Shown here one piece after another: positions 268-5,398 of a DNA stretch of 10,826 nt (position 1 is its first letter; every line of letters starts with the position of its first letter). A program made the translations under genes and the position numbers. A model generated the notes under the pieces. The model made no database searches, was not told the origin of the DNA, and saw nothing but the letters and a program-made list of their open reading frames with translations. The DNA comes from a virus (Duplodnaviria; Heunggongvirae; Uroviricota; Caudoviricetes): IMG/VR virus record IMGVR_UViG_2541047122_000009. One strand, given 5' to 3'.

Positions 268-879
268 TTAAAGCTGCATCAGCCTTTCCACCAGTTTATC
301 TCTGCGAACAACAAACCAACCATTGGCTCTCGCCAGTTCCAGCCATGACTCAAGGGAAATAACAATATCATCATCCCGCAACTGAATTGTGGAAACAGTG
401 ACACCGCCTCGCTGATAACAGAGAACTCGCGTGTCGTAACTTTTCTGGCATGCAACTGGCGCTGACGGATCCTTTTGACTGAAATAGCAGTCTTCCAGTT
501 TTTCGAACACTTCCCACGCCTGATCGGTTTCGAGCATTTTTGCGTGACGGGCTGCGCCGCGTTCTGTCCAGAGGATGAGGGAGCGGGCTTTCGGGGAAAT
601 TTGTAACCCTCTTAAAGATGGTTGCAAATTTTGTGAGTTACTTAAAGTAACCCGCAAATTTTGTGAGTAGTTTAAAGCTACCCGCAATTCTTTAAGGTCA
701 TTACCAACAACTTTGAAAAAGTGTTTCCCTTCAACGAAGCGTACTTTGTTCTCATGATGATTCTGGCGAATACGCACCGGCTCAGTGCCGTAAAGCTGCG
801 CCAAAAGTTCGGTGGTAATAACAGGAATCTGGTTATGGGTGATCGGGGAGAGAGTTTCAACAGAAATTTTAGTTGTCAT
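268..879 (-). CDS. ORF6N-domain antirepressor-like protein (Ant/Roi-like), 203 aa
   Basis: ATG at 879..877 preceded by AGAGGG with 7-nt spacing. The N-terminal block VITTELLAQLYGTEPVRIRQNHHENKVRFVEGKHFFKVVGNDLKEL matches my recollection of the ORF6N (phage antirepressor N-terminal) domain. The middle of the protein is encoded by 30-bp in-frame tandem repeats. Confidence 0.75.
   Translation of the reverse strand: MTTKISVETLSPITHNQIPVITTELLAQLYGTEPVRIRQNHHENKVRFVEGKHFFKVVGNDLKELRVALNYSQNLRVTLSNSQNLQPSLRGLQISPKARSLILWTERGAARHAKMLETDQAWEVFEKLEDCYFSQKDPSAPVACQKSYDTRVLCYQRGGVTVSTIQLRDDDIVISLESWLELARANGWFVVRRDKLVERLMQL
594..713. repeat. About four tandem 30-bp units carrying three phased palindromes centred at 614, 644 and 674
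   Basis: Units 624..653 (gcaaattttgtgagttacttaaagtaaccc) and 654..683 (gcaaattttgtgagtagtttaaagctaccc) are near-identical, with degenerate units either side. Palindromes are GTTACTTaAAGTAAC (637..651), GTAGTTTaAAGCTAC (667..681) and GTAACCcTCTTaAAGAtGGTTGC (603..625). Confidence 0.85.
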
Positions 880-1037
880 AATGACGCCCTCTGGTGGTTT
901 CTTAATAACTCACCACCGACGACGCCAATCGTCTGGTGGTGAACTGTGCAGGGTTGGCGTAACCGGGAAACCGACCGGCGCGGATCTCTCCGCCCCCACA
1001 CAGCCCACCATAATTCAGATGTGCGCGTGCATACGAC

Positions 1038-1062
1038 AATAAAAAACACGCTCGCGGCGTGT
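1038..1062 (-). terminator. Putative rho-independent terminator between ninE and the ORF6N gene
   Basis: Plus strand aataaaaaa-ACACGC-tcgcg-GCGTGT; on the minus strand a 6-bp stem is followed by TTTTTTATT. It lies 90 bp downstream of the ninE stop. Confidence 0.5.
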
Positions 1063-1153
1063 ATCTGTCGCGGTCTCTATCCAGGACGCCAATCCCGACG
1101 CCAGATTTTGCTGGCGTTTGAGGAATATAGCCCCGAATAAATCATCACGTCAA

Positions 1154-1336
1154 TCACCTTGTTTTCCTCGCACGATGTCTTAGCCACCGGATATCCCACA
1201 GGTGAGCCGTGTAATTGAAGGTTTTTACGTCAGATTCTTTTGGGATTGGCTTGCGTTTATTTCTGGAGCGTTTCGTTGGAAGGTATTTGCAGTTTTCGCA
1301 GATGATGTCGGTGATACTTCGTCGCTGTCGCCTCAT
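1154..1336 (-). CDS. ninE: NinE-like protein, 60 aa
   Basis: ATG at 1336..1334 overlaps the TGA stop of the methyltransferase (ATGA coupling). Product [60 protein letters not shown] matches my recollection of lambda NinE. The tracked 90-aa ORF is an upstream extension overlapping the methyltransferase. Confidence 0.7.
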
Positions 1337-1860
1337 GCAGCCCTCCTGACGCCCAGCCCGATCGCCATCAATGCCGCTTTGGATACGGTAGTAAACATCC
1401 GTCGAGGACTGATGAACGGTCGCCAAATCAGCAACATTGAGCCTTTGCTGTTTCCCTTCTTCTCCAGCCCTGTCGATGGTTCGATAAAATTAATCCGTCC
1501 ATCAGTGATGATGCGAACTTCGTCAACACTCTCCAGAGCCTTGCTGAACCATCCGACAGACATATCCTCTGGCACAAGCATCACTACCGTCTGTCGCTGT
1601 TGTATGCACTGCTCAGCGGCTTTTTCCACCCACGGCCTGATATTGCTGTACGGTGGGTTATTCCAGATTGCACCGTGGCTTATCCACTCAGAATTTAGCG
1701 CGTCGTCAGCCTCAGTTAGCCAGTGAGCGCACAGAGCGTTTTTGTCGCTCGCAGCTGAATCCAGCCAGAATCCAAACTCAATATCCAGCGCATCAAAAAG
1801 CCAGAGCGGCGTTTGCCAGCAGTCCTTGTCGTGTGCTGGCGTATTTGATTTGATAGTCAT
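1333..1860 (-). CDS. Phage orphan DNA N6-adenine methyltransferase (Dam-like), 175 aa
   Basis: N-terminal [24 protein letters not shown] and the catalytic NPPY motif are typical of phage N6-adenine methyltransferases. I prefer the start at 1860 (ATGA overlap with the ninB stop, RBS AAGGGAAGG); the tracked ATG at 1887 would add 9 residues. Confidence 0.85.
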
Positions 1861-2303
1861 GCAGCCTTCCCTTTTCGTTGTGACCATTCATACTCTCGCC
1901 GGGAGTCATCACTCCACCGCACGTTGCGCTCTGAGCCGAACCAGAACATGATTTCGATAAGCTCAGTCATGCTGGCCTTTCGCATTTTGCTGGTACGCAC
2001 GCCAAGCATGACAACGCCACCGTCGATACCAGGCGCACTTCTTTGCTCCAGTTTTTTGGTCTTAAGCCACAGGGCAGTGAACAGGTCTTTCCAGTCTTCC
2101 GGCGCCAGCCGTTGACCATGCCATAGCACCTGACGCGAAACATCGTTCAGCATCGGCCACATGCGGTCATTCTGCGCTTTGCTGCGCTTGGGTTCTTTAA
2201 CGTGGACTTCGTGGGGTGACTTGTCGTCGATGGGTAGTGAGAGAATGGCGTCTATGGCGTTATTTCTGATTGCTTCGTTGCGAAGCAGAAAGGTTTGCTT
2301 CAT
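1857..2303 (-). CDS. ninB: NinB recombination protein (Orf-family), 148 aa
   Basis: From MKQTFLLRNEAIRNNAIDAILSLP the protein aligns with lambda NinB as I recall it, including the NDRMWPMLNDVSRQVLWHGQRL block. The tracked ORF start at 2405 is a spurious 34-codon extension; a GGAGAG RBS precedes the ATG at 2303. Confidence 0.85.
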   Translation of the reverse strand: MKQTFLLRNEAIRNNAIDAILSLPIDDKSPHEVHVKEPKRSKAQNDRMWPMLNDVSRQVLWHGQRLAPEDWKDLFTALWLKTKKLEQRSAPGIDGGVVMLGVRTSKMRKASMTELIEIMFWFGSERNVRWSDDSRREYEWSQRKGKAA

Positions 2304-4580: not shown

Positions 4581-5398
4581 GCAATCCCCCTGTCTGCAAA
4601 CTTCCCTTCCCGAACTCCCGTTAACGAATCTTCCCTCAGCAGGTAATCAAAATCTGCCGTCCAGCCCGTGTCGTTGTCTCCGAAGTAAAACGGCTTGGCC
4701 TGATGCACAAACGCCCTGACATACGCTCTGAAACCGTCCACGTTTGGCGTTTTCAGTTGCGGGATAATTTTCTTCAGGCGGCGTTTTCGTTTCTCGTTGA
4801 CCGCAACAGCGTGTGGAAGTCTGTCACCGACTTCGGTGTTGTAGGCGTTCAGGAAGGATTCGTAGTCGATTCGTTCTGCCTTGCGACGTTCAGGTTTAAC
4901 CTGCCCATCGCCATCCCCGTTAGGGGGTAAGGGGGTATTTGTATTTATTGTCTTTTGTATATTGTCTTTTGTGTTTAGCTGACTTGGCTTATACCCATTA
5001 GCCGACTTGGCTAATGTTTTATTAGCTGTTTTAGCTAATGTTAAGCTGTCCTGGCTAATCCACTGAGAAACCACCTTGTTCACTCCGATTTTCACGCCAT
5101 CAGCAATGAGGAATTTACGCTCAATAAGCTGGCGCTTGGCAGCGCAAACATGAGTGTGATGAATACCTGTCATGGCTGCTATCTGCGTGTTTGTGAGTCG
5201 ATCCATCGGCTTATTGAATCCGTATGTCTTGCGCATGATAGCGAGCATCACCTTCAACTGCCGGACGGTTAAATCAGCCATCAGCAGACTGTCGGTAATC
5301 TCGTTAGCAACGCGCATGAAACCATCTTCGGTATCTGCCACGCGATGCTCCACGACCTCCAGTTGAGGCCTGTAATCAGCTAACTTAACGACGCCCAT
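4577..5398 (-). CDS. O: Replication initiator protein O (lambda O family), 273 aa
   Basis: N-terminal domain [51 protein letters not shown] parallels lambda O as I recall it. RBS AGGAGTGA precedes the ATG at 5398. Iterons and an AT-rich tract are embedded mid-gene, as in lambda. Confidence 0.9.
4921..5060. repeat. Putative replication origin: iterons plus AT-rich tract inside the O gene
   Basis: Two 18-bp iterons, TTAGCTGACTTGGCTTAT (4975..4992) and TTAGCCGACTTGGCTAAT (4998..5015), match at 16 of 18 positions, followed by partial copies. Adjacent are duplicated ATTGTCTTTTGT (4947..4972) in an AT-rich block and duplicated AGGGGGTA (4922..4938). In O-sense the order is iterons then AT-rich, as in lambda ori. 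Confidence 0.6.

Follow-up and report, generated by a model that had tools for sequence, protein, structure and literature searches.

An optional methyltransferase gene between ninB and ninE of a lambda-like phage is bordered on both sides by a short connector common to many nin junctions

The window, that is, the whole stretch of 10,826 nucleotides analysed here, contains the gene run ninB-dam-ninE (Table 1). Profile searches assigned the three products to NinB (PF05772), Dam (PF05869) and NinE (PF05322), with all scores far over the cut-offs. The ninB-dam-ninE region is 100% identical to its annotated counterpart in Stx2 phage 1717, and the closest relative of the window as a whole is Stx2c phage 2851 (99.9% over 96% of the window length). 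A longer open reading frame that would start the methyltransferase at 1887 was dropped in favour of a start at 1860, since the TIGR01712 match runs from residue 2 of the 175-aa form; annotation likewise supports 1860, and a Shine-Dalgarno sequence lies upstream of it. Beyond ninE, the first nine bases of ninF are retained, past which the window changes to an isrK/C4/ant module. Judged from its sequence, the ninE/ninF site is a further mosaic joint at which the connector has been retained.

Table 1. Genes and junction features of the ninB-ninE region, in window coordinates.
Feature	Position	Strand	Description
ninB (allele label ninB_A)	1857..2303	-	148 aa; PF05772, E = 2e-48; product class orf-family recombination mediator; ninB also annotated in phage 1717
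dam (phage N-6-adenine methyltransferase gene)	1333..1860	-	175 aa; PF05869, E = 3e-64
ninE	1154..1336	-	60 aa; PF05322, E = 8e-44
Left connector GGAAGGCTGCATGA	1857..1870	-	ninB/dam junction
Right connector GGAGGGCTGCATGA	1333..1346	-	dam/ninE junction
Catalytic NPPY codons	1648..1659	-	dam residues 68-71; from translation and sequence
ninE/ninF connector and first ninF codons, GTGATTGAC	1149..1157	-	as in lambda and HK620

The initial annotation had reported a 14-base direct repeat at both junctions of the methyltransferase gene, with an ATGA stop/start overlap in each copy and Ala-Ala at the end of both upstream proteins, and all three observations held. The repeat is present where it was described, and its two copies are equal at 13 of 14 positions, the sole difference being one purine in the Shine-Dalgarno part; the exact run common to both spans 10 bases, GGCTGCATGA. 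The left connector comprises the K-A-A-stop end of ninB, a Shine-Dalgarno-like GGAAGG and the ATG of dam overlapping the TGA of ninB, while the right connector comprises the R-A-A-stop end of dam, a Shine-Dalgarno GGAGG and the ATG of ninE overlapping the TGA of dam. Both junctions accordingly present a Shine-Dalgarno-like run, a 4-5 base spacer and then ATGA, in which TGA closes the upstream gene and ATG opens the next, so that dam overlaps each neighbour by four bases. The translations agree, with NinB ending in ..RKGKAA and the methyltransferase in ..GVRRAA.

At up to two mismatches, the 14-mer matches the window at these two sites only, against a chance expectation of 0.15, and at least two matches arose in 3 of 200 shuffles; TCATGCNGC likewise occurs in the window at the two connectors only. 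The window contains 52 direct-repeat families of at least 12 bases, and the connector repeat falls outside the 20 largest, so its weight lies in its position and not in its length. Neither promoter-like nor terminator-like sites were found flanking dam, the ends of the module lack inverted repeats, and neither junction forms a hairpin, both folding less stably than shuffled controls (z = +1.4). Such weak folding fits an open ribosome-binding site. These junction features suggest that dam and ninE are expressed by coupling to upstream translation, a dependence predicted because promoters, terminators, hairpins and inverted repeats are all missing from the module ends.

We compared 406 loci, comprising the IMG/VR surroundings of relatives of the methyltransferase, NinE, three NinB alleles and NinC, together with the annotated phages lambda, HK620, ST64T, Oslo, phi345 and VT2-Sakai. 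The NinB alleles were labelled ninB_A (window type), ninB_L (lambda type) and ninB_C (HK620 type). The gene after ninB_A or ninB_L is dam, ninC, ninD, an HNH gene or ninE. Behind these two alleles we found the order dam-ninE; further orders after ninB were dam-ninC-ninD-ninE, dam-ninC-ninE, ninC-ninD-ninE (as in lambda), ninD-ninE and HNH-dam-ninE. Direct joining of ninB_L to ninE was observed in several distinct contexts, for example at loci L126 and L187, and ninB_C is joined directly to ninE in 80 of 80 loci. The methyltransferase gene is thus a module present or absent between ninB and ninE. No ninB_A/ninE empty site occurred among the 406 loci compared, and when a synthetic ninB_A/ninE query was run against phage and E. 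coli collections, the best 30 matches from each were all two-piece and dam-occupied.

For the methyltransferase gene, 244 phage records reach 95-100% identity, beyond which identity falls to below 80%. Furthermore, dam more than 95% identical was found behind ninB alleles that are otherwise unalignable with each other. High identity in such settings is the signature of a recently exchanged mosaic module.

Comparison of the junctions delineated a core, GGGCNGCATGA, an interrupted 11-mer in which positions -7 to +3 are nearly invariant (the A of ATG being position 0). The string GCNGCATGA is present in 70 of 78 distinct junction contexts, across 11 gene pairings: ninB_A/dam, ninB_L/dam, HNH/dam, ninB_L/ninC, dam/ninC, ninB_L/ninD, ninC/ninD, ninB_A/ninD, ninB_L/ninE, dam/ninE and ninC/ninE. 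The core of the left connector also precedes dam where the upstream gene is an HNH gene or either of two unrelated ninB alleles, and the right connector reads mostly GGAGGGCGGCATGA in relatives. Across lambdoid phages, the core closes ninB, dam, ninC and the inserted HNH gene and opens dam, ninC, ninD and ninE, and therefore borders any optional gene between ninB and ninE on both sides. Whichever optional gene is considered, the connector before it and the one after it are the same, so that its gain or loss leaves a working junction.

We then located where the identity of the upstream gene gives way to that of the downstream gene. Per-position mutual information placed upstream-gene information at or before -8 and downstream-gene information at or after +4. 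One position between these limits departs from the pattern: the wobble base at -3, which lies in the penultimate alanine codon of the upstream gene, tracks the downstream gene. Only junctions that open ninE have G at -3, whether the upstream gene is ninB_L, dam or ninC; where it is ninB_L, all 5 contexts leading into ninE have G and none of the 16 leading into dam, ninC or ninD do (Fisher p = 5e-5, a value that overstates the support since the contexts share ancestry).

Homology breakpoints between mosaic relatives fall inside the core. Upon alignment, ninB_A/dam and ninB_L/dam regions were unalignable up to GGCTGCATGA and identical from there on, and since identity begins at the core, at least these joints were not made inside ninB. 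The empty site at L126 consists of a ninB_L left flank and a dam/ninE right flank joined within the core, and the BLAST segment ends, at query positions 585 and 1100-1121, coincide with the two connectors. From the positions of these breakpoints we infer that recombination took place at the core. A related expectation, that a phage without the module would carry a single copy of the repeat, was borne out in part: L126, L187 and other ninB_L/ninE sites have a single copy of the core, but the HK620-type ninB/ninE junction, GGAGGTAYGAATGA, lacks the core.

The 14-mer as a whole did not prove to be the conserved unit. Among 143 distinct dam-containing regions, the two 14-mers agree at 10 of 14 positions in 67 cases and at 12 of 14 in 35, and in 112 of the 143 the exact run ending at ATGA is 6 bases long, placing the window, with 13 of 14 and a 10-base exact run, in the upper tail. 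In VT2-Sakai the connectors, GGTAGGGCTGCATGA and AGGAGGGCGGCATGA, agree at only about 11 of 14 positions. With relatives mostly at 10-12 of 14, the conserved unit is the interrupted 11-mer. Nor does the repeat mark a dam cassette in particular. In lambda, the core occurs at ninB/ninC, ninC/ninD, ninG/ninH and bet/exo, and GCNGCATGA is found at 4 of 21 ATGA junctions between open reading frames, three of them in nin; the expected share of ATGA junctions with this string is about 1%, estimated roughly from codon and amino-acid usage in E. coli. This estimate and the lambda junctions outside nin served as the background, since the opening 50 kb of the E. coli K-12 chromosome hold about one annotated 4-base overlap, fixC/fixX, and a chromosomal control would take megabases. 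The proposal of the initial annotation, a cassette swapped in at a short conserved junction, therefore stands as regards an optional dam gene whose boundaries lie in sequence common to many junctions, but not as regards the 14-mer or its specificity for dam.

The connector also extends beyond close relatives. Outside nin regions, Enterobacter phage BHUENT3 and 80 relatives in IMG/VR carry a methyltransferase clade with only 50% amino-acid identity that likewise ends in REAA-stop with GGGAGGCCGCATGA; in 14 of these 80 loci, GGAGGCGGCATGA again precedes the methyltransferase gene. Diverged ninC alleles, compared at their 3′ ends only, share the AA-stop end with all four wobble bases and differing downstream genes, although one ninC clade has VVA-stop in place of AA-stop. 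The 50%-identical clade and the ninC tails indicate that the connector is older and wider than this locus and was kept in vertical descent. Such vertical maintenance is as compatible with selection for expression or for the protein tail as it is with recombination.

We assign a probability of roughly 0.7 to the reading that the 14-mers are translational-coupling connectors, each composed of a purine run, two alanine codons (GCN GCA) and an ATGA overlap, and hold with equal confidence that this shared connector spread by viable breaks within it, the joints themselves arising from rare microhomology-dependent or illegitimate events. New joints would form rarely, within the core or immediately before it, by microhomology-dependent annealing or illegitimate exchange, and would survive when the upstream frame is closed and the downstream ribosome-binding site is intact. 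Incoming genes would thereby gain an Ala-Ala-stop tail, and in this way the connector would spread. Two HNH insertions illustrate how termini are inherited: the phi345 HNH gene has the lambda-type ninB tail KARWGDRAA at its end, and an HNH homing-endonuclease-like open reading frame in L324, L319 and L137 starts with the first nine codons of dam. Joints here fall inside gene ends, and incoming genes take over the termini of their neighbours.

Crossing-over within the core itself would be very rare. Efficient Red recombination has been quoted to need roughly 30 bp (PMC3945230), far above the 6-10 exact bases available; runs of this length do lie within the 5-13 bp over which RecET recombination proceeds at about 1e-8 (PMC2327257). 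Most present-day transfers of dam would probably go through long ninB/ninE homology and not through the core.

We next weighed whether functional convergence might suffice, with each gene keeping by itself a strong Shine-Dalgarno sequence, an ATGA overlap and a harmless Ala-Ala tail, the module moving solely through ordinary homologous recombination within the long stretches of ninB and ninE beside it, and the core being no crossover point. Several observations are compatible with this account. Translation alone explains the purine run and ATGA, the AA-stop tail is kept with free wobble bases in the 50%-diverged dam clade and the diverged ninC alleles, exact identity between the two copies is typically 6 bases only, and ninB and ninE supply hundreds of bases at more than 95% identity. 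Nevertheless, the remaining parts of the connector are poorly explained by it. Other lambda ATGA junctions (A/W, W/B, Z/U, H/M, O/P, P/ren and R/Rz) use unrelated spacers, so the GCNGC spacer and the Ala-Ala tails are not needed for coupling. Moreover, the wobble base at -3 goes with the downstream gene although its alanine codon belongs to the upstream one, and the near-identical dam genes behind unalignable ninB alleles begin their identity at the core. This linkage pattern of the spacer and the tails argues that joints were made in or just upstream of the core, and we regard convergence alone as unlikely, though it is the strongest competitor of the shared-connector reading.

A more ambitious interpretation is that the core is a selected portable linker, preferred as a crossover point by phage annealing proteins with NinB/Orf as their mediator, or that the shared C-terminal Ala-Ala weakly marks proteins for ClpXP in the manner of an ssrA tag. 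Either would account for a tail that lasts across 50% protein divergence with free wobble variation. If the former were true, the ninB-ninE interval would be a genuine cassette-exchange site; if the latter, NinB, Dam, NinC, NinG and Bet would have a short half-life in common. We consider both improbable.

Less probable still is a dedicated mobile-element mechanism, whether an integron-like cassette site, a transposon target-site duplication or a homing-endonuclease footprint. A single gene flanked by a direct repeat is superficially like a target duplication, and HNH genes do invade this region, in the ninB-dam gap of phi345 and within the dam 5′ end in L324, L319 and L137; yet the HNH insertions have other breakpoints, and the core is also found at ninG/ninH and bet/exo, which show no presence/absence polymorphism. 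The lack of inverted repeats at the module ends, of a stable junction fold and of any integrase or transposase adjoining the dam module led us to discard the integron and transposon readings. A moron was likewise rejected, as dam overlaps both neighbours and brings neither promoter nor terminator with it. Finally, a chance likeness of two unrelated junctions, for which the many other repeats of the window and the occasional two-match shuffle might speak, is scarcely credible against a core that recurs in most junction contexts, across 11 gene pairings, and also occurs in single copy at empty sites.

For lambdoid phages, the proposal that modules are exchanged at short conserved boundary sequences is attributed to Susskind and Botstein (1978) and to Clark et al. 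(2001), the latter on HK620 (both as cited in PMC3029335 and PMC2327257). The system so described shares several elements with the present locus: a short sequence at both module ends and at the module-less junction, coinciding mosaic breakpoints and a lambda-like nin region. Here, in contrast, the boundary consists of only 11 interrupted bases, which also serve as coding sequence and as a ribosome-binding site. An equally established competing view holds that illegitimate recombination makes the joints and that selection for function then sorts them. The Hendrix/Juhala model of lambdoid mosaicism reportedly predicts no shared sequence at joints. The present joints resemble that model in lying at gene ends and in inserted genes that carry remnants of their neighbours, namely the ninB tail on HNH, the nine codons of dam and the nine ninF bases, but differ from it in the shared core present at the joints.

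Tight packing of the nin genes by ATGA overlaps was likewise reported previously, by Kroger and Hobom (1982) and Cheng (1995) as cited in PMC8022706. The ATGA overlap, the Shine-Dalgarno sequence inside the preceding gene and the lack of intergenic promoters and terminators are the same here, whereas the GCNGC (Ala-Ala) spacer belongs to a subset of such junctions only, those 4 of 21 in lambda. Set against these accounts, our finding is already known in kind, a tidy instance of phage mosaicism in sequence identical to annotated phages. No new kind of element is involved, since the methyltransferase, nin ATGA packing and the boundary-sequence idea are all in the literature. The locus provides a compact, well-sampled case of how single accessory genes are swapped without operon damage in lambda-like phages, and it bears both on the reading of Shiga-toxin prophage mosaics and on the old dispute between linker-mediated and illegitimate recombination.

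Lastly, we examined the enzyme that the module encodes. The dam product scored 216 bits against PF05869 (cut-off 28) and 264 bits against the TIGR01712 equivalog (cut-off 97); its NPPY motif is intact and its 175-aa frame uninterrupted. It is identical at 173 of 175 residues to M.EcoVT2Dam, the Dam of VT2-Sakai, an orphan methylase reported to target GATC (PMC6602927), from which it differs by the substitutions I60V and L169Q. The two genes share their position between ninB and ninE, the NPPY motif and the lack of a partner endonuclease, and differ in these two residues and in the lower agreement of the VT2-Sakai connectors. We predict, on this identity, that the window enzyme is a GATC methylase of the M.EcoVT2Dam type, in which case its methylated motif has already been reported for a 99%-identical protein. 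It is an orphan in the window as well, with ninB and ninE as its immediate neighbours and no partner endonuclease adjoining it. Shielding of phage DNA from restriction, the role initially proposed, is plausible for this predicted methyltransferase. Virion DNA of lambda and P22 is under-methylated by host Dam (PMC8022706), and maintenance of the lysogen has been suggested as an alternative role (PMC3342100).

HNH endonuclease genes have entered the region around the methyltransferase gene dam at two points among the compared loci (L-numbers). In three of these loci, L324, L319 and L137, an HNH ORF of 184 aa is inserted just within the 5′ end of dam, where it takes over both the connector of dam, that is, the short stop/start overlap sequence at the gene junction, and its first nine codons (MTIKSNTPA), while dam gains a new start, ATGATTAAG. 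In phage phi345 (L166), an HNH endonuclease gene lies instead between ninB and dam; its 3′ end consists of the last ~9 codons of lambda-type ninB (KARWGDRAA), and the ninB located 5′ of it has an ending different from this tail.

The 3′ tail of dam itself reads GGGCAGGGTGTCAG in relatives such as L024 and GGGCTGGGCGTCAG at 1347-1366 (-) of the window. The L024-type tail matches the HK620-type ninB 3′ tail, GGTCAGGGTGTCAG (1484-1497 of HK620, L002), at 13 of 14 positions, and both are read as AIGQGVR in their respective proteins; this agreement suggests that the tails of dam and HK620-type ninB share a common ancestry. In the phage record of Stx2a_F349 (AP012530.1, 19115-19640), the same dam gene carries a pseudogene annotation, and its alignment is split into two segments over a span longer by one base; the methyltransferase is therefore not always maintained intact.

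Features of the window and of related loci.
Feature	Position	Strand	Match or content
ant-like antirepressor ORF	window 268-879	-	
C4 antisense RNA	window 932-1015	-	Rfam, 66.7 bits
isrK Hfq-binding sRNA	window 1041-1117	-	Rfam, 74.7 bits
ninE|ninF GTGA connector and first ninF codons	window 1149-1157	-	GTGATTGAC
Three tandem imperfect 22-base repeats	window 4974-5042		23-24 base spacing
Lambda cIII thermoregulator element	window 9948-10006	+	Rfam RF01804, 88.5 bits
HNH homing-endonuclease-like ORF, 184 aa	L324 1917-2471; also in L319, L137		
HNH endonuclease gene, ninB-dam interval	L166 (phi345) 908-1510		

The ninF gene is absent from the window, yet its connector with ninE and its first codons are kept, placing the mosaic joint after ninE 9 bases into ninF. 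Directly 3′ of ninE lies isrK, with a promoter-like site immediately 5′ of it (1153-1124, -); its 3′ end carries a site resembling an intrinsic terminator (1062-1046, -). Together with the C4 antisense RNA, located 5′ of the ant-like ORF, and that ORF itself, isrK forms one module that stands in place of the ninF and later genes of lambda and HK620.

The match to the closest phages, 2851 and 1717, ends near position 473, within the ant-like ORF, leaving ~1-472 outside. In phage 1717, moreover, dnaB is separated from an HNH gene by ISEc8 and further DNA, both of which the window lacks. Elsewhere in the window, the 22-base repeats are located within the replication O-like gene and are probably origin iterons.
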